Shown in pieces: positions 11,948 through 54,847 of a stretch of DNA of 64,000 bases (position 1 is its first letter; each line of letters opens with the position of its first letter). A program made the position numbers and the translations under genes. Under the pieces are notes generated by a model. That model was not told the origin of the DNA and did not search any database. It saw only the letters and a program-made list of their open reading frames with translations. Source of the DNA: an uncultured Eubacteriales bacterium (GTDB taxonomy: Bacteria; Acidobacteriota; Aminicenantia; Aminicenantales; Aminicenantaceae); assembly GCA_964584935.1 (NCBI GenBank), contig CAZPBN010000003.1, forward strand, positions 39,880-103,879. Direction: 5' to 3'.

Positions 11948-12036
11948 TATAAGAGACGTATCAAATTAAAAAAAAGTTCCCCTTCCTTTTTATTCACTCA
12001 TACCGCAGGGAATCCAAAGGGTTAGCAGTGGCAGCT

Positions 12037-20753: not shown

Positions 20754-20762
20754 TTTGTCCTC

Positions 20763-22520: not shown

Positions 22521-22848
22521 CTTTCCCTCTTCCTTTGACAAACGAATCCGATCCGGTGGCTTTTATAGCTATATCCTTCATCATACGTTCCATATAATCA
22601 GTGATCCCTCTATGATCGGAGAAACCAACAACCACCGGACAAAATTTTTTTTTCATATCCTTAAGCTCTTCCGATAAAGGCTCTAAAAAACTCTCATGCA
22701 TAAAACAAAGCGCAATCCCTTCATCTTCCAGAGAGTATAAAATTCTTCTGGCTTCTTCGGAATTTTTTGGAGAAAATATCTTCATCCCTGTCGCTTTAAA
22801 TCCGAACACAAGATCAATATCTCCTATTATAGCTACTTTATCAAACAT
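22507..22848 (-). CDS. atpF: A/V-type ATPase subunit F
   Basis: [21 protein letters not shown] is typical of F. ATGTTTGA overlaps the subunit C stop. Confidence 0.85.
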
Positions 22849-24039: not shown

Positions 24040-24146
24040 ATTTTTTGGACATCCTCCTGAAATTTTGTATGAGAAATTTCCTTAAACAGTTAGAAATATG
24101 ATTTTCCTTCCCTTAAAAAACACATTGACATCGGTCAGAATAATCT

Positions 24147-24623: not shown

Positions 24624-24656
24624 ATCCTCCTCCTATATTATCTTAAATTATTTTAT

Positions 24657-34104: not shown

Positions 34105-34107
34105 ACC

Positions 34108-36048: not shown

Positions 36049-36052
36049 TCAA

Positions 36053-37255: not shown

Positions 37256-37590
37256 AAAAATATTTTATATCATTTTTTTAATACTACCATTTTCTATAAT
37301 TATTACCTATTTCACTATTCGTCTTTTCAAAATAAACAAAACAGCTACCAATTTCTTGATATTATTTCTTTTATTATTTATAAGTATGACCTTCTTTTTA
37401 TTTATGTTCACATCATAAAAAATTCAATGTTGGATTATTTTTCAATCAATTAATGGAACAATTGAAAATTAGCCCCCTCTCCACCCGCAAATATCAAAAT
37501 GAACACCTCAATAAAATCATAACAAAATTGAATTGAAAAATCCCTTTTCTATCTCTTTCTCGGATTGTCAACAAAACATTCCTTGTATAA

Positions 37591-38670: not shown

Positions 38671-38677
38671 GGCTTTT

Positions 38678-39736: not shown

Positions 39737-40362
39737 TATAGATCACGTAAGAATCTGAATGATTTAAATGCTTCCGCATATTTGACTTTCCCTTGAAATC
39801 CCCTAAAATTTGCTGTCGCTTTGACACTTTCAACCATATCCAGGTTAGTGGGATAGGATTTGCTTACTTGGGAAGCAAAAATCTTGATCAATTTCTGCTT
39901 TTCTTCCAAAACATCTTCAATATCCACAAATATATCAGGATCAAAATTGATTGATGTGTAATCTTCATAAAAGAAAACCTTCTTTATATATCTGGTTGCA
40001 GCAAAAGTGCAAGAAGCCAAGGTTCTGTGATCCTGATGGATGTCCTCAATATAATTCACATAGACTTCATCAGGTTTTGTCTTCTCAATGACCTTATCAA
40101 TACTGGAAATAATTTGTCTGTTATTCGGCAGCTCAGTATCAGTATATCCCCCCCAAAAAATTTGTTTTACTCCAAGCATTCTTGATGCTTCTTCTTGCTC
40201 TCTTTCCCTGATATTTTCATCACCTCCGTATTCCCCCTTAGTCAGAATCATATAGAATATATTCACTCCTTTTCTGACCATTTTGAGAAAAGTCCCTCCA
40301 CAACCGTATTCTATATCATCAGGATGAGCTCCAAGTGCTAAAACATTCATCTTAGTTCTCAT
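39736..40362 (-). CDS. PIG-L/LmbE-family deacetylase
   Basis: LALGAHPDDIEYGCGGT and HQDH zinc-binding motifs. Confidence 0.85.
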   Translation of the reverse strand: MRTKMNVLALGAHPDDIEYGCGGTFLKMVRKGVNIFYMILTKGEYGGDENIREREQEEASRMLGVKQIFWGGYTDTELPNNRQIISSIDKVIEKTKPDEVYVNYIEDIHQDHRTLASCTFAATRYIKKVFFYEDYTSINFDPDIFVDIEDVLEEKQKLIKIFASQVSKSYPTNLDMVESVKATANFRGFQGKVKYAEAFKSFRFLRDL

Positions 40363-41035
40363 TTACTAAAATAGACAAACTGTCCGGACCACAATTGAAA
40401 AGCAGATCTAACACAGACATAAACGGCTCAAAATCTCCATAAATCTGGGGGTAAATCGGGTGCTTATATTCCTGATAAATTATCTCTATACCTTCTTTCT
40501 CAAATAATTCTGTGTTCATATAATTCGCTCCATCTTTACCTGACAGATAAGCATCTGCATTCAATTGCTTACAGATGTCAATCAATCTCTCTGTACTTTC
40601 TTCTCTTAGCCTGAGTTCAGAAGACCTAAGGAATTTTTTTGTACGAATTTCCAGGGCTTCTGTTAAATAAGCTATCATATGGATATTGAGATCCACAAGA
40701 TTCTCCCACTCCCGATTGAAGGTTTTTTCAAAAAAAGGAATATACTTTTTAAAATATTTTGTTTTTGAATAATGATTATATAAAGCATTCAAATGTTTTT
40801 TTTTCCATGCAACTGTGTTATTTATCTTCACTTCATTTATTTTTTGAGGAAATCTATGAATAACAGGGATAGTCAGCCATTGCCACCTTTTGTCAGTTTT
40901 TATTTTATTTCTATTTTGCCATTCATTTTTTTTGAACTGAACATTATCCAAAAAAACAAAAATGTCACTTCTTCTTATTTTGTCAAAATAGCCAAGCCAT
41001 GGTAAATACTGAGGTTGATGAACGGAAACTAGCAT
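40352..41035 (-). CDS. WbqC-family protein
   Basis: MLVSVHQPQYLPWLGYFDKI is the WbqC N-terminal signature. Confidence 0.8.
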   Translation of the reverse strand: MLVSVHQPQYLPWLGYFDKIRRSDIFVFLDNVQFKKNEWQNRNKIKTDKRWQWLTIPVIHRFPQKINEVKINNTVAWKKKHLNALYNHYSKTKYFKKYIPFFEKTFNREWENLVDLNIHMIAYLTEALEIRTKKFLRSSELRLREESTERLIDICKQLNADAYLSGKDGANYMNTELFEKEGIEIIYQEYKHPIYPQIYGDFEPFMSVLDLLFNCGPDSLSILVNEN

Positions 41036-41152
41036 TTTAATAGATTATCTTTTTTTTATAGATCAAGGACTGTTTATTCCTTCATATCTAGCACCCTATT
41101 TTTAGGATCCAAATTGGAATTATCACAGCCAATAAAGACCTTAACTCCCGAA

Positions 41153-42166
41153 TTATTCAGCCAAACTCTCATTCTCATCCAATGCCTTTTCAATATATAA
41201 AAAGGGAGACTTTGCCAAATCAATCTGTCTTTTTTCTTCGACTGGACTTCCATCAGAATTTTGAATGATCTCAATGACCGGATGAAGTGGAATTTTTTTA
41301 TTCACAGAAACCACTTTCCCAATTTCATCAGAATTCAATTTGACATAACTCCCAATAGGATAAAAAGTCACATAATTCAAAAATGCTTTTAATAATTCCG
41401 GATAAAACGAATCATTTTCCTCCAGAACAATAATTTTTACGGCTTCAAAAGGAATAATTCTGTTGTTTCTATACGGTCTTACGTGTGTGAGGGCTTCATA
41501 TACCTCTGCAATTCCTACGATCTGAGCATATTTGGATATCTCCTTTCCTTTTTTCCCCTCTGGATATCCCTTACCGTTGAACTTTTCGTGGTGTTGGATT
41601 ATGACTTCAGAAGCAATCGGAGGCATATCCGTTATTTTTTTTAAAAGTTCTAATCCATTATAAGGATGTTGTTTCACCTGCTCGAATTCTTCAAAGGTTA
41701 ACCTTCCTGGTTTTGTTATTATCTCCTGCGAAGTATTAAACATACCAATGTCATGAACCAAAGCCGAAGCACACAGGTCGATGAGTTCCTTTTTGTTATA
41801 TCCTAGAGAAATTCCCAGATTTACAGAAAGAATGGCAACATTTAGAGAGTGAATATACATAAATTCACTCTCATGTTTATATAAATTATAATCATTCACA
41901 AGGGATAAAAAGACTTCATGCTTTATATGAAGCTTTTCCACAATAGTTTCAGCAAGATTCATAATTATTTTCCCATCTGCTTTTTTATCTTTCTGCAGGT
42001 CTTTCATTATTTTCTCAATCTGCCGAATAGAATCTTCATATATTTTTTTAATATCTGAAGGATTTTGTAAAACTTTTCTTATTTCATTTACCTTTATCCT
42101 TACTGTATCTCTTCCCTTTACATCCCCTTTTTTAGATTTTTTTACTAATTCTGACAGTCTTACCAT
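41153..42166 (-). CDS. HD-GYP-domain protein (putative c-di-GMP phosphodiesterase) with an uncharacterised N-terminal region
   Basis: LVHDIGM and HHEKFNGKGYP motifs. Confidence 0.8.
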   Translation of the reverse strand: MVRLSELVKKSKKGDVKGRDTVRIKVNEIRKVLQNPSDIKKIYEDSIRQIEKIMKDLQKDKKADGKIIMNLAETIVEKLHIKHEVFLSLVNDYNLYKHESEFMYIHSLNVAILSVNLGISLGYNKKELIDLCASALVHDIGMFNTSQEIITKPGRLTFEEFEQVKQHPYNGLELLKKITDMPPIASEVIIQHHEKFNGKGYPEGKKGKEISKYAQIVGIAEVYEALTHVRPYRNNRIIPFEAVKIIVLEENDSFYPELLKAFLNYVTFYPIGSYVKLNSDEIGKVVSVNKKIPLHPVIEIIQNSDGSPVEEKRQIDLAKSPFLYIEKALDENESLAE

Positions 42167-42170
42167 TATA

Positions 42171-42983
42171 TCAATACTCCAAATGCCGGATAGCTTTTTC
42201 TGCAGTGTCTTTATCGATCTCTTCTTTATCGTTTGAAAAACCGATAAGAAGACTTATATCACAAACATGATTGATCATACGGGGGATACCCTTAGAATAT
42301 TCCCAAATGAGATCAACTGCCGGATCTGAAAAGATGTCTTGTGTTGTTCCTGCAATTTCTAACCGGTGTTTGATATATTGCTTGATTTCGCTCTTTTCAA
42401 GAGGGGTTAAGTGATATCTAGTTGCCAATCTTTGTTTCAAAGGTTTAAGTTCTTCTATTTTTTTTATCAATTCTGGCTGTCCTATAAGAACAAGAGTCAT
42501 AAGAAATTTATAGTTTAATTGAAAGTTCAATAAAAGTCTTAATTCTTCAAAGGTTCTTATATCCCTGATTGTATGGGCTTCATCTATAATGATTACAGTT
42601 TCTTTATGACTATTCATATTTGAAAAAAGATGATTATTCAGACTCTGCAATAATTTCGGCTTGGTTCTTCCGTTATTATGAGATATTCCTAGCTGAAAAC
42701 ATATTTCTCTCAAGAGATCAACAGATGATAACATGGGATTGGTGACAAGACAGATATCATACTTATCTTGAGGAAGTATTTCAAAAAGAATTCTGCTGAT
42801 TACTGTCTTTCCACATCCGTATACTCCGGTCAACAAGGCGGCTCCTTTTTGCTCTTCTATAGCATAACTCAACCTGGTGAGTGCTTCCACATGTTCGCTT
42901 GAAAGATAGATAAAGCGGGGATCTGGTGTGTTTTCAAAAGGTTTTTCATTTATTTGCCAGTATTGTTCATACATAGTTATCAT
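42171..42983 (-). CDS. ExeA/GspA-like AAA ATPase
   Basis: Walker A GVYGCGKT, Walker B VIIIDEAH, and GQPEL and GIPRMIN blocks typical of ExeA-like ATPases. Confidence 0.8.
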   Translation of the reverse strand: MITMYEQYWQINEKPFENTPDPRFIYLSSEHVEALTRLSYAIEEQKGAALLTGVYGCGKTVISRILFEILPQDKYDICLVTNPMLSSVDLLREICFQLGISHNNGRTKPKLLQSLNNHLFSNMNSHKETVIIIDEAHTIRDIRTFEELRLLLNFQLNYKFLMTLVLIGQPELIKKIEELKPLKQRLATRYHLTPLEKSEIKQYIKHRLEIAGTTQDIFSDPAVDLIWEYSKGIPRMINHVCDISLLIGFSNDKEEIDKDTAEKAIRHLEY

Positions 42984-43334: not shown

Positions 43335-44798
43335 ATGAGGAACAATATGAAAAGGATTTTATTACTCCTTATTTCAACGGTTTTAATAAATTTCTTTAAT
43401 ATTTACGGGATGAAAACTGATACTATTCAGATGCTGGGACTGATGGATATTCGGACAGACTACAGCGATGGAGCTCACACCTTGGACTATATTGTGAAAT
43501 TAGCTAAAAAGAGAGGATTCCATGTTCTTTTTATAACCGATCATGACAGAGTCGCTTTAGAGTATGGATTGCTCCCATTTGAAAACATTCTAAAGATTAA
43601 GGTAGAGAGGGATTCTATTAATAAAAAAGGAGCACTAAAGTATTTATCCATGATAGAACGAGTCTCGAAAGAAAATCCGGACATGATTTTAATTCCTGGA
43701 ACAGAATCCAGCCCTTTCTATTACTGGAAGGGGAGTATAATTAAAAGAAATTTAACCGTTTTAAACTGGGAAAGGCATCTTCTAGTGGTAGGTCTGGAGG
43801 ATCCATCAGATTATAAAAATCTGCCTACCATTCACAATGAATCCACTTATAATGTAAAAAGATTTTCTTATCTCACCCTGCTTCTATTAATACTCGTTTC
43901 AATATTTTGTATATATATAATTTTAAGAAAGAAAAAAGCTATCAAAATTGCTGGTATAATAATCTTAATTTTTTGTTTGCTTCTTATGATCAATAAATAT
44001 TTCTACAAGAATTATTCTTTTGATCAGTATCATGGAGATAAAGGGATTTCACCTTATCAGGTTTTTATAGACTATGTCATCAATCACGGCGGCATGGTTT
44101 TTTGGAATCATCCTGAGACAAAATCAGGCTATTCAAAAATGGGCCCGGTGTATAGAAATACACCTCCTTATCCACAAGTATTAATCAAATCAAGGAATTA
44201 TACCGGTTTTTCGTCTTTATATGGTGACAGCACCACAATCATTGATCCTGGAAATCTATGGGATAAAGTTTTGCTTGAGTACTGTTCCGGAAAAAGGGAA
44301 AATCCTGTGTGGGGAATTTCTACTTCTGATTTCCATAAAGAAGGCGGTGCGGGAGAAAAGTTAGGAAATTTTCTTACGGTTTTTCTAGTAACCGAAAAAA
44401 GCAAAAGAGGTATTCTGGACGCCATGGAAAAGGGAAAAATGTATGCTTTCAGAGGAAATATTGATTATCCCCCTTTGGTTTTGAAAGAATTCTCAGTTTC
44501 AAATTCACACGATTCTCAAAATGTGACTATGGGAGATGAAATAATATGCGATACAAAACCCCACATTCACATTGTTATTCAAACGGCTTTCCCTAAGACA
44601 GAGAATGCTGTGATTGTTCAGCTTATTAGGTCTGGGACAATGATAAAAAAGTTCTCCGGTAAAACCCCTCTACATATAGATTATCACGATAATTATTATA
44701 AAGCCGGGAAAAAAACATATTACAGAATCACCGCAAAGGACAGTAAAAATCAAAAAATAGTTTCAAATCCTGTCTTTGTGACTTTTAAGAAAAAATGA
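43335..44798 (+). CDS. Membrane protein with a degenerate PHP-like N-terminal domain
   Basis: N-terminal signal/TM, DIRTDYSDGAHTLDYIVKLAKKRGFHVLFITDHD (PHP-like but without the HxH), and two central TM helices (LTLLLLILVSIFCIYIIL, IAGIIILIFCLLLMI). Confidence 0.55.
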   Translation: MRNNMKRILLLLISTVLINFFNIYGMKTDTIQMLGLMDIRTDYSDGAHTLDYIVKLAKKRGFHVLFITDHDRVALEYGLLPFENILKIKVERDSINKKGALKYLSMIERVSKENPDMILIPGTESSPFYYWKGSIIKRNLTVLNWERHLLVVGLEDPSDYKNLPTIHNESTYNVKRFSYLTLLLLILVSIFCIYIILRKKKAIKIAGIIILIFCLLLMINKYFYKNYSFDQYHGDKGISPYQVFIDYVINHGGMVFWNHPETKSGYSKMGPVYRNTPPYPQVLIKSRNYTGFSSLYGDSTTIIDPGNLWDKVLLEYCSGKRENPVWGISTSDFHKEGGAGEKLGNFLTVFLVTEKSKRGILDAMEKGKMYAFRGNIDYPPLVLKEFSVSNSHDSQNVTMGDEIICDTKPHIHIVIQTAFPKTENAVIVQLIRSGTMIKKFSGKTPLHIDYHDNYYKAGKKTYYRITAKDSKNQKIVSNPVFVTFKKK

Positions 44799-44840: not shown

Positions 44841-45032
44841 TTATTTTTTTACCCTATTAAACTCTCTGACTCCCAACGCTATGGCAAAAAGAAGTAACAA
44901 CTGGGAAAATTGAACGTAAGCCTGGGCAGTTATCCCAAAAAAGAATGGCTTTAAAAGAATTCTGGTGATAATACCGAAAATAATGCAAATGACTGCGGCA
45001 ATAATAAACAAATCACACAATCTATTTATCAT
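44841..45032 (-). CDS. Small two-TM membrane protein (63 aa) encoded by the last gene of the RiPP-type operon
   Basis: AAGGAGGG lies 4-5 nt before the ATG at 45032. MINRLCDLFIIAAVICIIFGIITRILL...LLLLFAIALGV. Confidence 0.5.
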   Translation of the reverse strand: MINRLCDLFIIAAVICIIFGIITRILLKPFFFGITAQAYVQFSQLLLLFAIALGVREFNRVKK

Positions 45033-45094
45033 ACGTCCCTCCTTATTTATGTTTTGATAATATACTTTGATTTCCAATATGTCAACTTATATAA

Positions 45095-46540
45095 TTATGA
45101 ACGAGTTCCTTGTATCTTTTTTATTAATGAATCTTGTATTTGTTCCTGGGAATTAATATATTTTCTCATAGCACCCCAAAATTGAGCTGTCATTCGGGCT
45201 TCTTTGAAGTACTTTTGAAGTTCTGGTTTTGGAAAACCTTTGAGGCTAATAACAGGTTCATCCAGCCTACTGAACTTAGCCCAGTCCCTTGTGAGAATTT
45301 TAAGATTATATTTTTCAGGATTTTTGTAAATCGCAGTACCGGGATAGGGATTAAATATTGATACCTCCTGAGTCATATTGAGGTCATTTTCCCAAAGATA
45401 AACCATTGCCTTAAGACTTTCAGTAGCTGTTTCAGGAGTTTCTCCTGGATGTCCAAACATCCATAAAGTACCTGCTTCCAATCCATGTTTTTTGATCAAT
45501 TTACATTTCTCTACAACCTTGTTAAAAGTAATCTTTTTATTCATTATTTTGAGTACTTTTTCTGATGCGCTTTCAACGGCAATGAGTATTCTTGTTATAC
45601 CGGCATCCTTCATTATTTCAATATGCTCTTCCGGCAAGTGATTAGCATGAGCTAAAACCGCAACTGTGTGGTCTTTGAAATCAATTTTTTTTAGCTTTTG
45701 ACACATGTGATTGAAAAAATATTCCGGAACATTAAACATGCTCGCCAGAAAACCGATAAAAGCATCGTTCTGGTTATATTTCGAAACTAAAAAATTAATT
45801 TCTTTAGATATTTTATCCACAGCGCGTACCCGCATTTTATGTCCCCAAAATTCACTTTCCACACAATACACACATCTGAAAGGACAGCCTCTTGTAAACG
45901 TAAAGAAAAAATTACATCTTTCCAAGTATTTCTCCTTAACTAAGGAGTAATCACAAGCCGGAAGCTCTTCTAATTTTCCAGGTTTTCTGTTTACGTTTCT
46001 TATAATAGAATCGTTTTTTCTATAGGTGATCCCCTCTATATTTTTCAAATCCTTTTTACTGAGAATGCAATCGACTATGTCAAGCATTGTCCATTCCCCT
46101 TCTCCGCGAACCACTATATCCACATTTTTACTCTCTTGGAGGCATTCTTTATCCAGAAATGTCACATGAGGACCTCCGATAACAGTCGTGATTTCCGGAT
46201 TTATGTCTTTGCACAATTCGAGAATCTTAAGGGAGACAGGATACTGGCATGTATGAGGCCCGATCCCCACAATTTTGGGATCGGCTCTCCTTATAACTTT
46301 CTCTAATTTATGAAAAGGAAACGGATCTTCTCCTCTGTCAGGAATATCTGTTAAGAACAATTCATCTGTAAAAAAAACTTTAATCCGATATCCTTTTGAT
46401 TTCAAAAAGGTTGCTATAGAAAGAATTCCTTCTCCTGCTGTATGCCGGTCGCTGTGAGGCAAAATACCCTGACGCCAGAAAGGGGCTTGCATCAATAAAC
46501 AATCGACTTTATTCATAGCTGAAAAACTCCACCGTTCCAT
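45095..46540 (-). CDS. B12-binding-domain radical SAM protein
   Basis: An N-terminal cobalamin-binding-like domain followed by the RGCPFRCVYCVE CxxxCxxC cluster motif. Confidence 0.85.
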   Translation of the reverse strand: MERWSFSAMNKVDCLLMQAPFWRQGILPHSDRHTAGEGILSIATFLKSKGYRIKVFFTDELFLTDIPDRGEDPFPFHKLEKVIRRADPKIVGIGPHTCQYPVSLKILELCKDINPEITTVIGGPHVTFLDKECLQESKNVDIVVRGEGEWTMLDIVDCILSKKDLKNIEGITYRKNDSIIRNVNRKPGKLEELPACDYSLVKEKYLERCNFFFTFTRGCPFRCVYCVESEFWGHKMRVRAVDKISKEINFLVSKYNQNDAFIGFLASMFNVPEYFFNHMCQKLKKIDFKDHTVAVLAHANHLPEEHIEIMKDAGITRILIAVESASEKVLKIMNKKITFNKVVEKCKLIKKHGLEAGTLWMFGHPGETPETATESLKAMVYLWENDLNMTQEVSIFNPYPGTAIYKNPEKYNLKILTRDWAKFSRLDEPVISLKGFPKPELQKYFKEARMTAQFWGAMRKYINSQEQIQDSLIKKIQGTRS

Positions 46541-46558
46541 TCCTAATTTAGGTTCGTT

Positions 46559-47593
46559 TCATTCAATTTCATCCTGATCGGTTCTTCCCTTTTTATCCAC
46601 ATCTATCTTTTTTCTTAATTCTGCCATTCGACACGATTCACTGTCAGGCACAAACATTTTTTTTCTTTCCAATAAAGCTAAACCTTCGCATCTGAAACAC
46701 CAGAATTTCTTATTACACTTAGAAAAAGAATAACACGGCTTTTCAGAATCTTCTCTTATTTTCTTCAATGCAGAGGAATTTTCCCACAATGAATTTATAC
46801 TTATTTCTGATATGTTTCCAAGTTTATAAGGAACATTCAAGCAGGGATACACATCTCCTCTAGCATTAACGGCAAACATCACTTTCCCGAGATCACAGCT
46901 AAACGAACCGGTTGGATTTATTTTCGAAGCTTTTTCATAATGTTTGAAGTATTCCGTCATTTGCTCGTTTGTAAGCCTGTGTTTCACTGGTTCTTTATTT
47001 CCATTATCTCCCGGGTAAATCACAGGAGAAAAAATATGTAATAATTTCATCTCAGAAACCATTTCTCTTATTCTTCCTAACTCACTGAAATTCTCTGCGA
47101 GCACAGGAGTTTTTATGGCAATTCCAATTTCTTCCTTTTTCAAAAGCCTTATAGCATCCATAACTGATTCAAATGAACCGGAAATCCCGGTCAATCTATC
47201 GTGAGTCTCTGATGTAGCTCCTAACAGCGTTATATCAACCCAGTAAACACCAATTCTTTTTAATCTTGCCGCTTCAGTGGCTCCAATCAACGTTCCGTTT
47301 GTAAAAAGAAGAGTGGCGAAGTTGGATTGGACTGAATAATCCAATATGTCCCAAATATCTTCTCTCATCATAGGTTCTCCTCCTGTAATTGTCAAAAATA
47401 AAGAACCTAGTTCGGAAGCTTCATCCAAAATTCTTTTGATTTTATCTAAACTTAGGGTTTCGGTTTTTCTTTTATCATTATAACAATGAACACACTTCTG
47501 GTTGCAGGAAGTGGTCACCTCAATAGCTACAGAAAAAGGTATATTTTTACTAACTATTTTTCTGTAAAGACCGCCGAGTTTCATGGCTGCCAA
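46559..47593 (-). CDS. Radical SAM / SPASM-domain peptide-modifying enzyme
   Basis: TSCNQKCVHCY cluster motif, GGEPMM, and a C-terminal Cys-rich SPASM-like region (GDVYPC...LGNI...CYSFSKCNKKFWCFRC). Confidence 0.85.
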   Translation of the reverse strand: MAAMKLGGLYRKIVSKNIPFSVAIEVTTSCNQKCVHCYNDKRKTETLSLDKIKRILDEASELGSLFLTITGGEPMMREDIWDILDYSVQSNFATLLFTNGTLIGATEAARLKRIGVYWVDITLLGATSETHDRLTGISGSFESVMDAIRLLKKEEIGIAIKTPVLAENFSELGRIREMVSEMKLLHIFSPVIYPGDNGNKEPVKHRLTNEQMTEYFKHYEKASKINPTGSFSCDLGKVMFAVNARGDVYPCLNVPYKLGNISEISINSLWENSSALKKIREDSEKPCYSFSKCNKKFWCFRCEGLALLERKKMFVPDSESCRMAELRKKIDVDKKGRTDQDEIE

Positions 47594-48396
47594 TCCTTGA
47601 ATATTTCATCAAAAACATTGTCATTTTTTCTAAACTCTAAGTTATAGATAGGAACTCTACAACATATCTGTTCAACAGAAGAAAGTATATGTTCAATCAT
47701 CTCTGTATTTTCAGTGGGGTATTTCGGAAAAGATACACAGACACTGGAAAAAAGTGTCTTAACTGCATCTATCTTTTCAGTTTTTTTAATTTTCAATGCG
47801 TTTGATTTATTAATAAAATAAATTCCTTTCATTGGAAAATTTCCGTAACTTGAAATATCTCCCCATGGAGTGGAACACGAATACCATTTCTCATTCAAGT
47901 ATTTCAAGCCTATACAATCATCTGATAATATAAGTTTGCCAGTTTTTTTCGCAAGAGTACTTTTCCCTCCTTCATTGGGACCAATGAAGACATAACCTTC
48001 CCCTTCATTCATTACAGCCGATGCATGGATCAAAACACCATGATATTCAGGCAGGACATATTGCATCACTAACCTAAGAAAATTACTGTAGAGGTATTTT
48101 GCAAGTTCTCTGTTTATATAAGAAGCATCTGGTCCAAATGCAAATTTCTTCCTAAGGTCCACATTTCCCATCATAACCTGCATCTTCATATTTTTTTCTT
48201 TTCCATAACCATTTTCTTCCAGAACAAAATCAAATATTTTTTTATCTTTATAGAAATGAATTGAAAAATCGGCATCCCCGTTGCTTTTATAATCCTTCAG
48301 CCATTCATTCAGAATGACAAATCCTTCCTCCGTATCTGTTTCCAAATATAAATTCAGCCCTGCTATATTAACCACCAGGTTTTTCTTTGACATCAA
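47581..48396 (-). CDS. HPr-kinase-related (HprK-like) P-loop protein
   Basis: HASAVMNEGEGYVFIGPNEGGKSTLA matches the HPr kinase C-terminal domain P-loop context. The gene overlaps both neighbours. Confidence 0.7.
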   Translation of the reverse strand: MMSKKNLVVNIAGLNLYLETDTEEGFVILNEWLKDYKSNGDADFSIHFYKDKKIFDFVLEENGYGKEKNMKMQVMMGNVDLRKKFAFGPDASYINRELAKYLYSNFLRLVMQYVLPEYHGVLIHASAVMNEGEGYVFIGPNEGGKSTLAKKTGKLILSDDCIGLKYLNEKWYSCSTPWGDISSYGNFPMKGIYFINKSNALKIKKTEKIDAVKTLFSSVCVSFPKYPTENTEMIEHILSSVEQICCRVPIYNLEFRKNDNVFDEIFKDWQP

Positions 48397-48646
48397 GAAG
48401 CTCCTTTTTCTGAAGTTCTGTTAAAAAATCTCGGACATCTTTTTCAACTGTATCTCTATTCGATTCAAACAGAGTAAGAACATGATTTATTATTTCATCA
48501 AGCCTTTTTTCATTTTCAAGGAATTTCCAAATTTCAGTCCCAACTTCATTAAATACAATCACTTCATTTTCTTTTACTGAAACCACAACAGCTTTTTTTT
48601 CTATTTCTCTCCACGGTACATGGAAATACCGACTATAATGATTCAT
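48368..48646 (-). CDS. PqqD-family RiPP recognition element (lasso B1-like)
   Basis: At 92 aa, VVVSVKENEVIVFNEVGTEIWKFLENEKRLDEIINHV...DVRDFLTELQKKELL is a typical PqqD/RRE pattern. Confidence 0.8.
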   Translation of the reverse strand: MNHYSRYFHVPWREIEKKAVVVSVKENEVIVFNEVGTEIWKFLENEKRLDEIINHVLTLFESNRDTVEKDVRDFLTELQKKELLDVKEKPGG

Positions 48647-49053
48647 CTTTTATTTGATTCTCCTCTTGGGTATTTAAAAATTGGTTCAAAAAATTTTTGC
48701 GGAATTGTTTTTTCCATTTCTATCCAACAGTGTCCTTCCAATTTTGATTTGCTGAACAAAGCACCAAAGACAATTTTGGCATCAGATCCTCTTGATCTCA
48801 GAACTCTGCATATAGCAACTGAGCTATTAAAACATGAAATTCTTATGCCAGCTTTTTTAAAAAGAAAAAAACAAAAATTTATATATTTTTTTAATTTTTC
48901 TTTATCACAAGGTTTTTTCATTATGCCGTTGGCTTCAGCGAGTTTAAAACGTATTTCCGGAGAAGATAAGACAATCATCATCAATTCCCATATTATTGAA
49001 ACCAGAAGCTTTATATCTCTGTAATAATAAAGCTTTTTTAGCAAATTCCGCAT
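48643..49053 (-). CDS. Lasso-peptide B2-like transglutaminase-fold cysteine protease
   Basis: ISCFNSSVAICRVLRSRGSDAKIVFGA...LEGHCWIE matches the C...RG...G...(A/G)H(A/C)W(V/I)E signature of B2 proteins. A 4-nt overlap with the PqqD gene. Confidence 0.75.
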   Translation of the reverse strand: MRNLLKKLYYYRDIKLLVSIIWELMMIVLSSPEIRFKLAEANGIMKKPCDKEKLKKYINFCFFLFKKAGIRISCFNSSVAICRVLRSRGSDAKIVFGALFSKSKLEGHCWIEMEKTIPQKFFEPIFKYPRGESNKR

Positions 49054-49068
49054 AAATAACCATTTAAG

Positions 49069-49097
49069 ATTTTATTCTACCTTCTCCCTTATGTCAA
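49069..49097 (-). promoter_or_regulatory. Consensus-like promoter TTGACA-17-TAAAAT 15 nt upstream of the B2 start codon
   Basis: Reverse complements of 49092-49097 (TTGACA) and 49069-49074 (TAAAAT), with a 17-nt spacer. There is no SD between the -10 and the ATG at 49053. Confidence 0.45.
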
Positions 49098-49113
49098 GAA
49101 TAGTTGAATTTGA

Positions 49114-49296
49114 AGTTCCCCCATTTTTTTCTTTATAGGATAATAATAATGAAATGGATCAGGTTAATGGGTTCAAAAACACGCAGGATTTTCACCAGCG
49201 ATGAAAATCCAGCTCGATTTCAGGCCTCGCTCTCCTCTTCGAGGAACCATGCCCGCTCGGCCTTCAAACGGTTTTCTCACCCATATAACCTGATCC
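49114..49296 (-). repeat. Copy 2 of the structured repeat (block B 49114-49192, GC-rich core, block A 49246-49283, 5' closing-stem arm to 49296)
   Basis: Homology to 4137-4337 as described for copy 1. A 17-bp closing helix pairs 49156-49172 with 49279-49296. Internal hairpin ggattttca/tgaaaatcc. The copy is bracketed by a 20-bp inverted repeat (49111-49130 and 49351-49371). Confidence 0.6.
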
Positions 49297-49531
49297 TCTC
49301 ATCTTTTACTCCTGAACTTTCCTTCAATTCTTATTTCCCAGTTTATGAAGAAAAAAATGGGGGAAGCTTCATTTGGGGGGAAGGGGGCTTGAAAAGGTGC
49401 CCCCAAAAATTGGTTTCCCACTTTAAGATTTGATTAACTTAATGATTATAAATACATTACGTTAAGACTTGATCAATTTTTGGGGGAACTCCTGTAGTTG
49501 AAGTCCCCTAAATTATGATACAATAAGATAA

Positions 49532-50419
49532 ATGAAGCAGGAATATTCTTTTTTTGAATGGTTCAGTGATAAAAATCGTTTAATTTGTACCGGATCAAAC
49601 TTATTGAAACTGGATAAAATTGCTTCTTTGGTCAAAAGTCTGAACAAATCAAATGTGAAGGTTATGCTTTTGAAAGGGGCTGATTTACTGGAAAACACAT
49701 ATGAAGATATCAGCCAAAGGTCTATGGAGGATATGGATATACTCGTAAAACAAGGAGATCTCGATAAGGCAAGAAAAGTTCTTAGAGAAAACAACTATAG
49801 ATTGCTCTATTCAAATAAATCAAATTCTGAAGTCTACACGCTGGAAACAGAAAAAAATATATTCATTGACCTTCATTGGAGACTTGTTAACAAGAAAAGT
49901 CCTTCCCAACGATATATTTACTCACCCGATGAAACGATTATCTGGCAAAGAGCCGCTCAATTTAAAATTAAACATGTTCCTGTTTATGGAATGTGTCCTG
50001 AGGATCTTCTTGTTTACTTGTGTTTCCATTCTTTAAAAGAACGATTTCTGCAGAAAAAATGGCTCATTGACATAAAACTATTACTGAATAAGCAAGAAAA
50101 CCATATCGATTGGAATCAATTCATAGATATTGCCAGAAATTTTGGTACAGACAAACTGTGTGGTTTAATCCTTGATTATTTGAAAAAATTCTATTCTGTC
50201 AAAGTTCCATCCTGTTTGTTGATAAAATTGAAAAACAAATACCCTTTTTACTTTTTATCAGAACTTATTTTTAGATCCTATTTAAAATTGACAATAATTC
50301 CTAAAGATTTTCTCTGGCTTCTGGCAATGAACAGTAAAAAAAATCAGTTTCTTTTCTTAAAAGGATTACCTCTTTATCTCTGGAAAAAGTGGAGAGGGCA
50401 CATTTTACAAAAATATTGA
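49532..50419 (+). CDS. Uncharacterised nucleotidyltransferase family protein (PF14907-like)
   Basis: VMLLKGADLLENTYEDISQRSMEDMDILV and DLHWRL are typical of this family, which co-occurs with PqqD/HprK-like/B2 genes. Confidence 0.7.
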   Translation: MKQEYSFFEWFSDKNRLICTGSNLLKLDKIASLVKSLNKSNVKVMLLKGADLLENTYEDISQRSMEDMDILVKQGDLDKARKVLRENNYRLLYSNKSNSEVYTLETEKNIFIDLHWRLVNKKSPSQRYIYSPDETIIWQRAAQFKIKHVPVYGMCPEDLLVYLCFHSLKERFLQKKWLIDIKLLLNKQENHIDWNQFIDIARNFGTDKLCGLILDYLKKFYSVKVPSCLLIKLKNKYPFYFLSELIFRSYLKLTIIPKDFLWLLAMNSKKNQFLFLKGLPLYLWKKWRGHILQKY

Positions 50420-50461
50420 TTTGGATGGACTATTTTGAGAGGGCTAAATATTATTATTCAA

Positions 50462-50605
50462 TCAAGTCGGACAGCTATTCAATGCCTGTAAAGTTGAAGA
50501 ACATTCAGCCATTGCATTCCTGCAGGCAAGAAATGCTCTGTTAATCTTTTCGCTCTGCTCAATAGCCGGTTTTTCGTATTTTCTCTTTTTTCCCTGATTT
50601 TTCAT
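50462..50605 (-). CDS. Candidate RiPP precursor peptide (47 aa): MKNQGKKRKYEKPAIEQSEKINRAFLACRNAMAECSSTLQALNSCPT
   Basis: Translated by hand and absent from the ORF track (below 60 aa). GAAGGTG lies 4 nt upstream of the ATG, and TTGACA-17-TAGATT lies upstream. The leader is charged with a YEKPAI motif. The C-terminal third contains 3 Cys and ends in Thr. Confidence 0.55.
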   Translation of the reverse strand: MKNQGKKRKYEKPAIEQSEKINRAFLACRNAMAECSSTLQALNSCPT

Positions 50606-50623
50606 AAAACACCTTCTTTTGTT

Positions 50624-50652
50624 AATCTATATAATTTTCTCCAAAATGTCAA
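50624..50652 (-). promoter_or_regulatory. Putative promoter of the precursor ORF (TTGACA-17-TAGATT)
   Basis: Reverse complements of 50647-50652 and 50624-50629, with a 17-nt spacer. Confidence 0.4.
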
Positions 50653-50718
50653 TATCGATATTATAGTAAAATTTTCTTTTTTCTTATTTTTATCAAAATA
50701 GCAGCTTAAGGGATCCGG

Positions 50719-51396
50719 TTATATTTTATCTGTACTGCACATTAAAATCCCTTCCGGATCCACAAATCTCAAATAAAAACCCCAGCCTCCTGACCCCTGA
50801 AGGACTTTAATTAACACTTTATTCCATCCCTTCTTTAGATTCACCTTGATTTTATCTTGATCAGGGGAAGCTCCTCTATAAATAGCATGAGAATGGACAA
50901 GTTCATCATTTAACCATACACGAACCGCATCATCACTCCCTAGCAACATTTGGGTTTCAAAGGCTTCTGATGAATACACATACACCAATCCATAAGCTAC
51001 AGATTGTTCTTTGACTGGCAGCATATTCGCAAGATCCACATATCCGTTTTCTTCTGATTTCATTCTCTCCCATTTGACTCTCAAGTCATTTTTTCCCTGG
51101 TAGTTCTTAACAAGGGCAATCTCTTTCTCAGGGGGATAGACTTTTCTAAGGAAATCCATATTTGGAGCATCAAAAGATCCTATGATATTCCATTCAGTGA
51201 TAAATCTTCGTGAGGCTGATGTCGAACTCAATCCTATAAAAGCCAAGTTTGACCCGCTAGACTCAGGAACTTTTCCTTCAATCTTCAATAATATGTTATT
51301 TTCACCTTCTTGGAGACTCACTTTCTCCAAGATGAATTTTCCTATTTTTTTATCAGGCGAATATCCATTGAAAATCTTAGTTGGAGATAGGGACAC
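50719..51396 (-). CDS. Hypothetical protein with a jelly-roll / galactose-binding-like C-terminal domain; possibly N-terminally truncated
   Basis: GSDDAVRVWLNDELV and KGWNKVLIKVLQGSGGWGFYLRF resemble accessory beta-sandwich domains of glycoside hydrolases. There is no signal peptide. Confidence 0.5.
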   Translation of the reverse strand: MSLSPTKIFNGYSPDKKIGKFILEKVSLQEGENNILLKIEGKVPESSGSNLAFIGLSSTSASRRFITEWNIIGSFDAPNMDFLRKVYPPEKEIALVKNYQGKNDLRVKWERMKSEENGYVDLANMLPVKEQSVAYGLVYVYSSEAFETQMLLGSDDAVRVWLNDELVHSHAIYRGASPDQDKIKVNLKKGWNKVLIKVLQGSGGWGFYLRFVDPEGILMCSTDKI

Positions 51397-51479
51397 ATAT
51401 TCTATATCATTTATTTCGGAAACTTTAATATTTCAGTATATCGTACATTTATTATATTATGAGATCAGGAATATTGAAT

Positions 51480-52445
51480 TCAATCATAGACATAGTCCAG
51501 CCAGTGTTCATATTTATCTATTTTCCCGGTTAATGTATCCCTGAAGATCTTGTCTATTTTATCTGATATTTCTCCTCTTTTCCCTGAACCAATAATATAT
51601 TCCTTCTTCGGGGAATCTGGATCGGAACCGTCTGTAATTTTTATAATAGGAGTTAATTCAACTGCTGTTCCACAGAAAAACATTTCATCTGCTTCCAGAA
51701 GCTCTTGTTTCTTTATTGGCCCTATCGATGTATTGATTCCCAGGTCTTTTGCAATTTCTAAAAGAGAGGTCCTTGTAATCCCTTCAAGCACGGATTCTGT
51801 TTTATCGTTTGTCTTCAGAACTCCCTCTTTCGCAACCATAATATTTTCTCCCGGACCTTCCGCAATGTTTCCTTCCATATTAAGAAATATGGCTTCATCA
51901 CAATCATTTTTGCGGGCTATGTTTCCACAGATGGTCGACTGAACATAAACACCTCCTAGTTTAGCCGACATATCAATTTGACTGGGATGAACTCTATTCC
52001 AGGGAATGATGTATGCATGAACTCCTTTTTGCGCCTTCTCTCCCAGATAAGCTCCCCACTCCCAAGCAGCAATGACCAATTCCACAGGTGAATCTTTAGG
52101 AATAAGGCCAAGATTCCCATAGGAATAAAACAAAAGAGGCCTTATATAAGCTGAATCAAGCTCATTTTCTCTCATAACAAGTTTAATCGCTTCTGTAATT
52201 TCCTCTCTGCTGTAAGGAACCTCCATATTCAGTATGGATGCTGAGTGAAAAAATCGTTCCACATGTTTTTCCAGACGAAACACAGCCGGTCCCTTAGGCG
52301 TGTTATAAGCTCGAATTCCCTCAAAAACAGAAGTCCCATAATGAAGTGCATGAGTCATAGGATGAAGCACTGGTCGGGACCAGTCATAAAGTTCTCCCAT
52401 AAACCAGTATTTCTTTGCCTTAGGAAAATTTGTATTTTCAAACAT
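51480..52445 (-). CDS. ilvE: Branched-chain amino acid aminotransferase (fold type IV)
   Basis: VFEGIRAY, YIRP, the AKLGGVYVQS region and EGPGENI blocks. Confidence 0.9.
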   Translation of the reverse strand: MFENTNFPKAKKYWFMGELYDWSRPVLHPMTHALHYGTSVFEGIRAYNTPKGPAVFRLEKHVERFFHSASILNMEVPYSREEITEAIKLVMRENELDSAYIRPLLFYSYGNLGLIPKDSPVELVIAAWEWGAYLGEKAQKGVHAYIIPWNRVHPSQIDMSAKLGGVYVQSTICGNIARKNDCDEAIFLNMEGNIAEGPGENIMVAKEGVLKTNDKTESVLEGITRTSLLEIAKDLGINTSIGPIKKQELLEADEMFFCGTAVELTPIIKITDGSDPDSPKKEYIIGSGKRGEISDKIDKIFRDTLTGKIDKYEHWLDYVYD

Positions 52446-52582
52446 TTATACTCCTTCTAATAATTTATTATAGTAAGAGAATTAAGATGTTTTTTCATTT
52501 GCACTGGAAAGACTGGAAATTATTAAACTATCATAAAAAAATTGAAAAAAAAAGATATCTTTTAAAAAATCTGACAATAAAA

Positions 52583-53119
52583 TCATCTTTTCTGTACTCC
52601 ACTCAAGTTTTCCTTAATCTCAAATTTCCAAGAACACCAAACATCAGGAGGATGAGGATCCGGCGGACAGATAAGGCAGGTTGTTCTTATTCTCGGATCT
52701 ATTGTTTGCGCAAAATAACTATACTCGACAATCCCTACTTCTTTGCAGGGAAAATCGGGAAGGTTTTTTCTCTTTCTTGCTTCCTGAACACGGCATTTGT
52801 TCATCCTGAAGACACAATGACGTTCACTTTCCTCTGCAATTTCCTGGACATTAACATGAGCATACAATCTGAATTTGAGCGCTTGAATCAAAGAAGAAAT
52901 TCCGCCTCCGGGTTTCAATCCTAATCTTTTCATTATTCTCCTGGCTTCGATCACTGTGAAACTTTCCCAGGCTTCCCTGTCAAGATCCATGGCGACATCC
53001 ATTCCATACCTTTTTTCTGCCGCCTGAAACCATAAGCCATCATGGGCAAGCCAGTTTTTCGCTGCATCTTTCAACAGCTCATGCAGCTCTTCCTTCGATA
53101 AATCTTTTTTTTCTTTCAT
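52583..53119 (-). CDS. Hypothetical cytosolic protein with a C-terminal Cys cluster (DUF6125-like; family assignment tentative)
   Basis: WLAHDGLWFQ N-terminal block and C-rich segments (CRVQEARK...FPCKE...CLICPP...WCSW). Its start codon abuts the radical SAM gene stop. Confidence 0.55.
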   Translation of the reverse strand: MKEKKDLSKEELHELLKDAAKNWLAHDGLWFQAAEKRYGMDVAMDLDREAWESFTVIEARRIMKRLGLKPGGGISSLIQALKFRLYAHVNVQEIAEESERHCVFRMNKCRVQEARKRKNLPDFPCKEVGIVEYSYFAQTIDPRIRTTCLICPPDPHPPDVWCSWKFEIKENLSGVQKR

Positions 53120-54060
53120 TATACTCTCGGCTCATAATACAATAAGCCTTTGTATTTGACTTCTTTAATTTTTTCATCATGAATCAATATATCAATATAT
53201 TTAATGATTTCATTTTTATGTTTTCCCAGTGAATGAGAAATATCCAAAAGGGTTACAGGTCTTCTTTGAATCAGGGAAATGATGTCTCTTTCAAGATTTT
53301 TGGATTGCGAAGTCTGCTCTTTTCTATGAAATTGAGCAATGATTTCACATTTTTCTCCAAACATCTCCCTGATTTGTTCCATATCTTTTCGAGATAATGG
53401 TTTGGCAAACTCTTCTGCAGGAGGACGGATGACTGTATTGAGTTGTATTTTATTGGGACCAATAGCTGAAGAGGCTTTAATCAATTTTTTTATATGTTGG
53501 GGAGAGTCATTCAATCCTTTAACCAGCATAATTTCAAGCCAGAGCAAAGCTTTATACTTTTTGTTGAAATTGATAAGTCCCTTTATTATCTCATTGATAT
53601 CCAGGGATTTATGTGGCCTGTTGACTTTCAAAAAAATATCCTGGGATGCAGCATCCAAGGAAGGAACCACCAGATCTGCCGGCATCAATGATTGTCTTAC
53701 TGACTCTCTTATAAAAAGAGTGGAATTTGTTAAAACAGCGACAGGAATGGATGTGCTTTTTTTTATCTCTCTTATCATATTTCCCAGATCCAGGTTTAAG
53801 GTTGGTTCTCCGGATCCAGAAAAAGTGATGTAATCAATTTTTTTATCTGAAGAGACAGCCTTTTTCACTTGAGACATGACCGTATCATAAGGAAAAAATT
53901 TTTTTCTTTGTACGGTTTTATTTGTGGTGGGAGATAACTGACAGTAAACACAGTCCAGTGTGCATGTTTTAAATGGAAGAATATCAATTCCTAGAGAATA
54001 ACCCAGTCTTCTGGAAGGAACAGGTCCATAAATATAGATATGATAATCTTTCTCTTTCAA
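53119..54060 (-). CDS. Radical SAM protein (COG0731-like)
   Basis: GPVPSRRLGYSLGIDILPFKTCTLDCVYCQL contains the CxxxCxxC motif in a characteristic N-terminal context. GSGEPTL. Confidence 0.8.
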   Translation of the reverse strand: MKEKDYHIYIYGPVPSRRLGYSLGIDILPFKTCTLDCVYCQLSPTTNKTVQRKKFFPYDTVMSQVKKAVSSDKKIDYITFSGSGEPTLNLDLGNMIREIKKSTSIPVAVLTNSTLFIRESVRQSLMPADLVVPSLDAASQDIFLKVNRPHKSLDINEIIKGLINFNKKYKALLWLEIMLVKGLNDSPQHIKKLIKASSAIGPNKIQLNTVIRPPAEEFAKPLSRKDMEQIREMFGEKCEIIAQFHRKEQTSQSKNLERDIISLIQRRPVTLLDISHSLGKHKNEIIKYIDILIHDEKIKEVKYKGLLYYEPRV

Positions 54061-54139
54061 GTTATTAGTCCTGCATTATTCTTTCCAACAATCATTGAAA
54101 CTTAAAACATCATAGCCCTATATAAACCAACGCCCCATT

Positions 54140-54343
54140 TCACAGCCTGTCTTTATACACTTCAATAAATCTTCTCAGGGAGCGATCATATGTTTGTTCA
54201 ACATCATCAGGGAATAAACAAGCAGGAAGTTCCTTCATACGCCAATGATATTGAATGCATTCGCAACATTTCCCTTTCCGGCTGCAGGGTTCATAGGTAC
54301 AGTTGCAATTATTCAGATTTTCATCAATATTGCATTCTGCCAT
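54140..54343 (-). CDS. Small Cys-rich protein (9 Cys in 67 aa)
   Basis: [44 protein letters not shown]. It lies between the NifU-like and radical SAM genes on the same strand. Confidence 0.6.
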
Positions 54344-54367
54344 GGTGACTCCTTATATGAATTATTT

Positions 54368-54847
54368 TTATGTTTTCCGGTAGAATTTTTTCCACAAATT
54401 TTTTCTATGATTCAAGTAATCAGCCAGAGAACGCCTCAAAGTTCCAGACGCAAGCTGGGCACAATGAACATCTGGAGCCGGAAGTCCCCCCAGACGTTTT
54501 AATATTTCTTCTGTATTCACAAGAGCCAGGGCTTCCGTAAATGATTTTCCTTTTGTTATTTCTGTAACCATACTTCCGCAAGCCATCGTTGTTCCGCAGC
54601 CATCTGTCTGAAAAGTACATTGTTCAATCTTGCCGTTTTTGACTTTAACAAACATCTCCATAGTATCCCCACAAGAACCTTTTACAGATGCATAACCGTC
54701 TGCATTATCACATTTCTCAAAATTCCTTGGATTTTGCCAGTGCTCAATGACTGTTTCAGAATACTGTTTTTTTAACTGTTTCATAAGCTGCTCTTGGGTT
54801 TCCTGGACAAAATAATCTATCTCTTTATCTTTATCCATTTTTTTCAT
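54368..54847 (-). CDS. NifU/IscU-like Fe-S cluster scaffold protein
   Basis: GSCGDTMEMF, DGCGTTMACGS and HCAQLA supply the three scaffold cysteines in canonical contexts. Confidence 0.8.
   Translation of the reverse strand: MKKMDKDKEIDYFVQETQEQLMKQLKKQYSETVIEHWQNPRNFEKCDNADGYASVKGSCGDTMEMFVKVKNGKIEQCTFQTDGCGTTMACGSMVTEITKGKSFTEALALVNTEEILKRLGGLPAPDVHCAQLASGTLRRSLADYLNHRKNLWKKFYRKT

Follow-up and report, generated by a model that had tools for sequence, protein, structure and literature searches.

The window analyzed here is a stretch of 64,000 nucleotides of contig CAZPBN010000003.1, and all coordinates given below are positions in this window unless another locus is named. It contains a gene cluster that brings together the leader-processing proteins of lasso peptide pathways, a kinase-like protein and a nucleotidyltransferase with two radical S-adenosylmethionine (SAM) enzymes and a short precursor peptide, and that has no lasso cyclase. 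We regard the locus as probably a self-contained and functional cluster for a peptide that is made by the ribosome and modified after translation (RiPP), of a non-lasso kind. It is most likely best filed as a new RiPP architecture and a candidate new class that is rare and restricted to uncultured Aminicenantes and Omnitrophota. A bolder proposal makes the locus the first representative of a new RiPP class, in which the lasso B1/B2 pair, the kinase and the nucleotidyltransferase are detached from the cyclase and serve a scaffold built by SPASM and B12-dependent radical SAM enzymes; we put this at slightly less than an even chance. The genes that make up the cluster are the following.

50462–50605, minus strand: precursor peptide gene, 47 amino acids (aa)
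49532–50419, plus strand: PF14907 (NTP_transf_5) nucleotidyltransferase, 295 aa, transcribed away from the B2 operon and toward the precursor gene
48643–49053, minus strand: B2-type protease, 136 aa, a lasso-B2-type transglutaminase-core cysteine protease and putative leader peptidase
48368–48646, minus strand: PqqD-family RiPP recognition element (RRE), 92 aa, a discrete protein and putative leader-binding chaperone
47581–48396, minus strand: ScmC-family P-loop protein with the fold of phosphoenolpyruvate carboxykinase (PEPCK) and HPr kinase, 271 aa, putative peptide kinase
46559–47593, minus strand: radical SAM/SPASM enzyme, 344 aa, without a fused RRE
45095–46540, minus strand: B12-binding radical SAM enzyme of class B, 481 aa as listed

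A first-pass annotation, made from the letters of the window alone, had singled out this region. All of the open reading frames (ORFs) that it named are present at the positions it gave, as checked in the list of ORFs with translations. It had also described the B2 operon as tightly packed, with overlapping genes. This is correct for the first three junctions counted from B2, which overlap by 4, 29 and 13 nt, whereas the last two are gaps of 18 and 62 nt. Profile searches were performed against Pfam with gathering (GA) thresholds and against NCBIfam with equivalog or model cut-offs. The family labels of the B2, PqqD, SPASM, B12-radical SAM and PF14907 proteins were all borne out at the Pfam GA thresholds.

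The same gene set was found in about nine independent contigs, at 36–70% protein identity. Their sources include the candidate phyla Aminicenantes and Omnitrophota as well as unassigned metagenomes. The compared loci include L018, from an Aminicenantaceae metagenome-assembled genome (MAG) that is 98–99% identical to the window, L001/L006 from a Candidatus Aminicenantes MAG, L007 from an Omnitrophota MAG, L003/L004, L005, and the fragments L002 and L011–L014. In every contig that is long enough, except L007, the order is the 47-aa ORF, the oppositely oriented PF14907 gene, and then the genes for B2, PqqD, ScmC, SPASM and B12-radical SAM proteins. In L007, whose enzymes show 36–54% identity, the precursor gene sits between the SPASM and B12 genes; apart from this shift of the peptide gene, the position and orientation of the PF14907 gene are constant in all complete loci. 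The upstream flanks vary: L001 has histidine kinases, L003 has a resistance-nodulation-division (RND) pump, and the window and L018 each have different genes at this place. Since the seven genes recur while their flanks differ, the cluster is a conserved unit. Over the cluster and up to 10 kb around it, L001, L003, L005, L007 and L018 encode no cyclase similar to Asn synthase, the 15-kb locus of L007 included, so the homologous loci carry no adjacent lasso cyclase.

The precursor peptide is the component that ties these loci together most directly. Orthologues of 47–51 aa were found in L001, L003/L004, L005, L007 and L018, and family alignments of the precursor and of the B2 protein were built from loci fetched individually. 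The six precursor sequences share a Lys-rich leader with the invariant pattern K-Y-x-K-P-x-I...E-K-I-x-R and a core block with the invariant pattern F-L-A-C-R...C-x-x-T-L-Q...C-P, which contains three invariant Cys residues. Within the leader, the lasso-type motif Y10-x-x-P13-x-I15 is invariant in all six. The YxxPxL motif of lasso leaders spans positions -17 to -12 (PMC10368454). Pairs of precursor orthologues diverge at 26–46% of nucleotides, with synonymous changes in roughly every second codon that differs (14–23 synonymous against 12–25 non-synonymous). A purine-rich motif of the Shine-Dalgarno (SD) type precedes most copies, with the weakest one in L001. The peptide has no Pfam or NCBIfam family match, and a word-index protein search with it gave only near-identical or self matches. 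Because of the conserved blocks, the synonymous changes and the SD-like motifs, we consider the 47-aa ORF to be a genuine gene that belongs to the system. Its presence in five lineages, the YxxPx(I/L) motif and its relocation in Omnitrophota add to this, and the ORF that had been proposed as a candidate precursor is now strongly supported in that role.

Close to the precursor gene, a stretch of about 760 bp (50668–51427) has no counterpart in L018, which has about 470 unrelated bases at this place. The stretch includes a 225-aa ORF (50719–51396, GTG start, no family match). It is a strain-specific replacement adjoining the precursor gene.

The two putative leader-processing proteins belong to the families to which they had first been assigned: the 136-aa protein scores 34.6 bits against PF13471 (GA 26), and the 92-aa protein scores 57.9 bits against PF05402 (GA 23.4). 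The B2 orthologues in L001 and L007 also clear the cut-off of 33 bits of the lasso B2 model NF033537 (42.5 and 41.7 bits). The B2 alignment shows an invariant Cys74, an invariant His108 and an acidic residue, Asp or Glu, at position 114 throughout, and with these residues conserved the protease looks active. The gene on record encodes a B2 protein of 111 aa in the window and of 92 aa in L018. The 136-aa reading is kept in all orthologues, and therefore the automated annotation probably truncates the gene. A word-index search with B2 returned only near-identical or self matches, no close relatives were found among sequences of the Protein Data Bank (PDB), and a single-sequence AlphaFold model was unusable, with a predicted local distance difference test score (pLDDT) of 39.8. 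As for the PqqD-family protein, its top NCBIfam matches are GeoRSP PqqD, lasso_PqqD_Bac and PqqD, all under the equivalog cut-offs, and the lasso-specific exception models are also below theirs (40.3 bits for a cut-off of 80 and 24.2 for 70).

The 271-aa P-loop protein had been labeled HprK-like. The label is valid at the level of fold and motif, and the more precise family is ScmC: precomputed Pfam annotation places the protein and its orthologues in PF27840 (“ScmC”) at E <= 1e-5. Direct profile matches of the window protein are weak (E 1e-3 for ScmC, 0.013 for HprK-related kinase B and 0.06 for HprK-related kinase A), its score against the ScmC equivalog TIGR04249 is 18.5 bits for a cut-off of 125, and there is no Hpr_kinase_C match at E <= 0.1. 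The profile of the protein aligns to the PEPCK P-loop, and the ScmC profile has no close sequence relatives in the PDB beyond such PEPCK P-loop matches. An AlphaFold (AF2) model built on ten homologues has a mean pLDDT of 64.9, and from residue 121 onward the values are mostly about 75–93 with two short dips. The 50 best PDB matches of this model in Foldseek are all PEPCK or HPr kinase/phosphatase structures (E from 3e-6 to 1e-3), at modest TM-scores of 0.23–0.51. The ORF has a TTG start, and the gene on record begins one codon later.

The motif of this protein can be compared with a characterized enzyme. In BsfK, a kinase of lasso precursors, the motif H-G-G-G-K-S-D-D has been validated by mutagenesis, and its activity is strongly stimulated by its own B1 RRE (PMC10368454). 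Our P-loop family has an invariant block HAS...YVF.(G/A)PN.GGK(S/T)T...LSDD, with H123, G/A138, G143, K144, S/T145, D158 and D159 conserved and Glu or Asp in place of the middle Gly. The spacing from His to Lys is +21, equal to that in BsfK, whose motif reads H-x14-G-x2-G-x-G-K-S...D-D (PMC10368454). Judged by these positions, the P-loop protein keeps the residues that matter in BsfK and looks active.

Among 1.84 billion representative sequences, 10,887 relatives of the P-loop protein were found at E <= 1e-3 and only 32 at E <= 1e-30. Close homologues are very rare and form 10 clusters among 5.8 billion sequences. From the best 150 listed, 85 of the better-scoring relatives were profiled. Matches to ScmC TIGR04249 (E <= 1e-5) were obtained for 63 of them, to HprK-related kinase A for 27 and to kinase B for 18; one of the 85 is fused to a glycosyltransferase-like region. 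Three of the 85 match the archaeal-type signal peptidase I model. Distant ScmC-like proteins also adjoin or are fused with signal-peptidase-type proteases, of the S24 type at 9782–11228 of locus L009 and of the archaeal signal peptidase I type at 9947–12950 of locus L017. Such protease neighbors and fusions suggest a general link of ScmC proteins with peptide processing. The ScmC-like loci L008–L010 of Clostridia and Ruminococcus were considered as informative relatives of the cluster and rejected, as they have only the P-loop domain in common with it; in L009, the one of the three whose neighbors were checked, this domain lies beside an S24 peptidase.

The nucleotidyltransferase is assigned with a wide margin (154.9 bits against PF14907, GA 31.2). 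Its residues K48-G49, D67-x-D69 and D113 are invariant and fit the active site of a Pol-beta-type nucleotidyltransferase, so that this enzyme, too, looks active. It has no relative among PDB sequences.

The domains of both radical SAM enzymes exceed their Pfam thresholds, and these enzymes look active as well. The SPASM enzyme scores 77.5 bits against PF04055 (GA 29.5) and 37 bits against PF13186 (GA 21.5). Its top NCBIfam matches are AhbD, NirJ, MftC, ScmE, PqqE and WgkB, all far under cut-off, and the nearest PDB sequences are SkfB, PqqE and CteB. The second enzyme scores 54.2 bits against the B12-binding family PF02310 (GA 32.1) and 88.3 bits against PF04055 (GA 29.5). Its top NCBIfam matches, all under cut-off, are BchE, ApyD, HpnJ and PhpK, and its nearest PDB sequences are 9ccb, CysS and TokK. 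The true start of the B12 enzyme is probably the ATG at 46516, since the orthologues align from residue 9. Models of the BchE type, which does not methylate, score equally well, and thus methylation is the commonest outcome for such an enzyme and not an assignment.

From these families and motifs we infer a pathway, including the order of its steps and the cleavage site; no single chemical step in it should be given better than about an even chance. The discrete PqqD-type RRE would recognize the K-Y-x-K-P-x-I motif of the leader, bind the precursor there and, by analogy with lasso B1, PqqD/PqqE and MftB/MftC, present it to the tailoring enzymes. The SPASM enzyme would most likely form one or more thioether crosslinks of the sactipeptide or ranthipeptide type from at least one of the three invariant Cys residues, and the B12-radical SAM enzyme would most likely add one or more C-methyl groups. 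The most likely role of the ScmC/HprK-like protein is phosphorylation of a conserved hydroxyl, that of Thr38, which is invariant, or that of the Ser/Thr at position 36. This phosphate may afterwards be decorated by the PF14907 nucleotidyltransferase as in pseudomycoidin, where a nucleotidyltransferase elaborates the phosphate (PMC8498205). Finally, the B2 protease together with the RRE would remove the leader; lasso spacing would put the cut after Leu26, within the FLACR block, and leave a 21-residue core A-C-R...C-P-x. At 1210–2807 of the Omnitrophota locus L007, genes for an ABC ATPase similar to DrrA and an ABC-2 permease similar to DrrB come after the PF14907 gene in the same orientation. 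Neither gene is present in the Aminicenantes loci. This DrrAB-like transporter counts in favor of the reading as a RiPP cluster. The hybrid pathway proposed by the first-pass annotation is supported, with crosslinking, methylation, phosphorylation and nucleotidylation as predicted activities.

Several observations weigh against this interpretation. No enzyme of the cluster reaches an equivalog cut-off, and therefore the reaction types are guesses from family tendencies. The B2 protein of the window itself, at 30.6 bits, falls under the NF033537 cut-off that its orthologues clear. No product, mass or activity is known for any member, and every member derives from metagenome assemblies. In the Aminicenantes loci no obvious exporter is present. 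The earlier remark that an ABC exporter is lacking does not extend to L007 with its transporter beside the nucleotidyltransferase gene. Lasso leaders carry Thr, rarely Ile or Val, at position -2. With lasso spacing, i.e., with the Tyr at -17, this position would be the invariant Phe25 in our family. Lastly, 13 of the 21 positions of the predicted core are invariant between the two phyla. Such conservation is atypical for an antibiotic under diversifying selection, and the product could have a cofactor-like, signaling or metal-binding role. Under the bolder proposal given at the outset, a three-Cys core that is nearly invariant in both phyla would imply a conserved physiological role, such as signaling, metal binding or an envelope function, and not an arms-race antibiotic.

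This last point leads to the alternative that survives best, namely that the peptide is the precursor of a cofactor-like or metal-binding molecule for the cell's own use, on the model of pyrroloquinoline quinone (PQQ) or mycofactocin. A discrete PqqD protein next to a PqqE/MftC-like SPASM enzyme is the design of the PQQ and mycofactocin systems, and AhbD, NirJ, MftC and PqqE are among the top NCBIfam matches of our enzyme. The strong conservation of the core in two phyla, with its three invariant Cys, and the lack of an exporter in the Aminicenantes loci also agree with such a role. However, the whole core of 21–24 residues is conserved, and not two or three residues as in PqqA or MftA; the Omnitrophota cluster has a DrrAB-like transporter attached; and no redox enzyme that could use a cofactor is conserved with the cluster. 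Moreover, the great rarity of the family (about 10 protein clusters among 5.8 billion) is unusual for a cofactor pathway. We consider this alternative unlikely, and prefer the reading as a RiPP cluster.

The second alternative takes the neighborhood into account. The module could work with an adjacent polysaccharide or PEP-CTERM-type envelope locus, e.g., by means of a peptide that is attached to an exopolysaccharide (EPS) or regulates it, in the manner of annotated but uncharacterized cassettes of an HprK-related kinase, a PqqD protein and a nucleotidyltransferase. The region 32887–42983, which adjoins the cluster, is a polysaccharide/envelope locus, and the same neighbors are found in L001. 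It encodes two glycosyltransferases of family GT4, an AsnB-type amidotransferase of the EPS type, a WecA/MraY-like transferase, a PseC/DegT aminotransferase, PIG-L and WbqC proteins, an HD-domain protein, and a protein similar to the XrtA/PEP-CTERM-associated ATPase (231.7 bits for a cut-off of 324.5). In L007, a PseC/DegT-like aminotransferase gene is about 1.7 kb from the nucleotidyltransferase gene, and the distant P-loop relatives with kinase A matches (27 of 85), as well as the one with a glycosyltransferase-like fusion, point in the same direction. Nevertheless, the flanks that the window has in common with L001 may reflect ancestry only, as both are from one phylum. The upstream side of L003 and L004 is an RND efflux system, L018 and L001 have other genes there, and no exosortase or PEP-CTERM protein was identified here. 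An envelope role of this kind appears less probable still than a cofactor-like one.

The Asn synthase of the polysaccharide locus (34108–36048) deserves separate attention. The first-pass annotation had stated that the locus lacks a homologue of the lasso cyclase C, and had not mentioned this gene. None is present in the cluster itself, whereas the window does contain this Asn synthase 8.8 kb away, and it is of the AsnB type and not a lasso cyclase. The protein starts with MCG and keeps the glutaminase Cys2, scores 504.6 bits against the AsnB model TIGR01536 (cut-off 267) and 253 bits against the lasso cyclase model NF033535 (cut-off 525), has its best match in the XrtA/PEP-CTERM amidotransferase model, and is encoded between GT4 glycosyltransferase genes. 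By these features it is a glutamine-hydrolyzing AsnB-type EPS amidotransferase within a polysaccharide locus. It was rejected as a hidden cyclase on the basis of the MCG start, the AsnB model passed, the NF033535 model failed and the lack of a counterpart in related loci. The predicted cores of the six precursors share no conserved acidic residue, and that of L001 is entirely free of Asp and Glu. A lasso macrolactam cannot be the conserved product, because the core lacks a conserved Asp/Glu acceptor. Therefore the weakest alternative, a conventional lasso cluster fragmented by rearrangement whose cyclase (this Asn synthase or one elsewhere in the genome) acts in trans, is very improbable and already largely refuted: it can draw on the B1, B2, kinase-like and nucleotidyltransferase proteins, the set of accessory proteins that also accompanies lasso clusters of the paeninodin, pseudomycoidin and Bsf types, and on the sub-threshold NF033535 match, but it meets an AsnB-type enzyme without a counterpart in the related loci, the 15-kb Omnitrophota locus included, and a core that offers no conserved residue for the isopeptide bond.

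Other features at or near the cluster are the following.

44841–45032, minus strand: small protein with two hydrophobic segments, 63 aa from ATG, a lineage-specific accessory gene
43335–44798, plus strand: membrane protein with PHP and CehA/McbA-like metallohydrolase domains, 487 aa, convergent with the operon, cluster membership doubtful
49069–49097, minus strand: sigma-70-like promoter match TTGACA-17-TAAAAT (11/12) just upstream of the B2 start codon, from a consensus scan only
50624–50652, minus strand: sigma-70-like promoter match TTGACA-17-TAGATT upstream of the precursor gene, from a consensus scan, weak evidence as the region as a whole is not enriched in comparison with shuffled sequences

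Orthologues of the 63-aa protein occur at the same position in L001, L002 and L005 with 58–62% identity; L007 has no orthologue, and the protein has no Pfam or NCBIfam match. The 487-aa protein scores 55 bits against NF038032, below the cut-off of 80. It adjoins the cluster in L001, L002 and L005 at 54–55% identity and is absent from L007. Both proteins thus recur in Aminicenantes-type loci only.

Between the B2 and nucleotidyltransferase genes there is a 386-bp insertion (49109–49494) that is absent from L018. It is flanked by an 8-bp direct duplication TAGTTGAA at 49101–49108 and 49495–49502 and has imperfect terminal inverted repeats of about 12 bp, G[A/G]AGTTCCCCCA; its minus strand folds unusually well (z = -4.3). 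The insertion lies 11 bp upstream of the -35 element of the promoter-like site for the B2 operon. It has no second copy in the window and no Rfam match. It looks like a mobile element of the type of miniature inverted-repeat transposable elements (MITE).

Upstream of the cluster, 52583–54847 holds a small conserved group of genes for NifU_N, DUF6485, a radical SAM protein of 313 aa and DUF6125, with a class IV aminotransferase gene after them. The NifU, DUF6485, radical SAM, DUF6125 and aminotransferase genes at 51480–54847 were rejected as members of the cluster, being common only to L018, which is of the same species. The part of the window from 80 to 26567 contains ordinary housekeeping genes, among them a tricorn-type protease gene (80–3418), the genes for PolX and an NAD-dependent DNA ligase (5240–9055) and a V/A-type ATPase operon (about 18769–26567). 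At gathering thresholds Rfam gave no match and no tRNA anywhere in the 64-kb window.

If the proposed reading is correct, the lasso RRE and B2 pair is a module that can be carried over to other pathways, has been coupled to radical SAM chemistry in evolution and is not tied to cyclases. This would bear on how RiPP pathways are assembled and on mining tools that use B1/B2 as lasso markers. We know of no function established for the ScmC/HprK-related superfamily with its thousands of members, and seven genes with a 47-aa peptide make a concrete small system for the activities of ScmC and PF14907 proteins. Since the producers are uncultured members of candidate phyla, their product can be reached by heterologous expression only. 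It should be kept in mind that bioinformatic predictions of this kind are obtained fairly often in RiPP mining.

The first-pass annotation was aware of no characterized product for this gene combination, and full-text searches returned no paper on the combination and none mentioning SynChlorMet. The closest systems are compared one by one. The phosphorylated lasso clusters, i.e., those of paeninodin (PadeA-C-B1-B2-D-K), pseudomycoidin (PsmK/PsmN) and Bradymonas (BsfA-C-B1-B2-K-N-D), have in common with our locus the split B1 (PqqD RRE) and B2 (PF13471) proteins, a kinase-like protein of the HprK fold with the H...G..G.GK(S/T)...DD motif, a PF14907-type nucleotidyltransferase and a YxxPx(L/I) leader. 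In contrast to them, our locus has no cyclase in about nine loci and no conserved Asp/Glu acceptor, and its would-be -2 residue is Phe. Two radical SAM enzymes, SPASM and B12-dependent, replace the scaffold-forming enzyme, and the kinase-like protein belongs to Pfam ScmC with no Hpr_kinase_C match.

Sactipeptide and ranthipeptide pathways (AlbA, SkfB, CteB, PapB) likewise have a SPASM radical SAM enzyme beside a short Cys-containing precursor, and SkfB and CteB are among the nearest solved relatives of our enzyme. In our locus, however, the RRE is separate and not fused to the radical SAM enzyme, the three Cys residues lack the regular spacing of known cores, and the accessory genes (B2, ScmC, PF14907, B12-radical SAM) are different. 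The SPASM enzyme meets no equivalog specific for these classes (StsB 98 bits for a cut-off of 625, AlbA 71.5 for 850; the 25 best families listed do not include PapB). The B12 enzyme shares with the B12-radical SAM C-methyltransferases of RiPP pathways (ApyD, TIGR03975-type and CysS/TokK-like class B enzymes) a layout in which a B12-binding domain at the N-terminus precedes the radical SAM core. ApyD, which reportedly beta-methylates a Tyr of its own precursor, is its second-best NCBIfam match at 147.6 bits, far under the cut-off of 750, and our enzyme has no fused RRE.

The remaining system is the SynChlorMet cassette, which is said to have been defined bioinformatically by Haft and to be uncharacterized, with the components ScmC (TIGR04249), ScmD (TIGR04248), ScmE (TIGR04250) and ScmF (TIGR04251). 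The first-pass annotation did not mention this cassette, which the ScmC family of the P-loop protein links to our locus; together with the phosphorylated lasso clusters it is the closest system described. Like our locus, it combines a PqqD-family protein, a ScmC-family P-loop protein and a PqqE-like radical SAM/SPASM enzyme in one operon. The window proteins are far under the cut-offs of all four equivalogs (ScmC 18.5/125, ScmD 24.8/100, ScmE 102.9/400, ScmF 72.1/400). Our locus has one SPASM enzyme instead of two, the second radical SAM enzyme being B12-dependent, and a lasso-B2-type protease instead of a signal-peptidase-like one, with PF14907 added. A near-canonical cassette of the SynChlorMet type is present in L017, with ScmE-like and ScmF-like proteins at 374 and 358 bits (cut-offs 400), a ScmC-like protein, an archaeal-type signal-peptidase-I-like protease and a bacteriocin-type ABC exporter. 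Since a ScmC-like protein is paired there with two SPASM enzymes, a protease and an exporter, ScmC-type proteins are regular parts of peptide-maturation cassettes, and in the locus described here such a cassette has, for the first time, a precursor that can be named.

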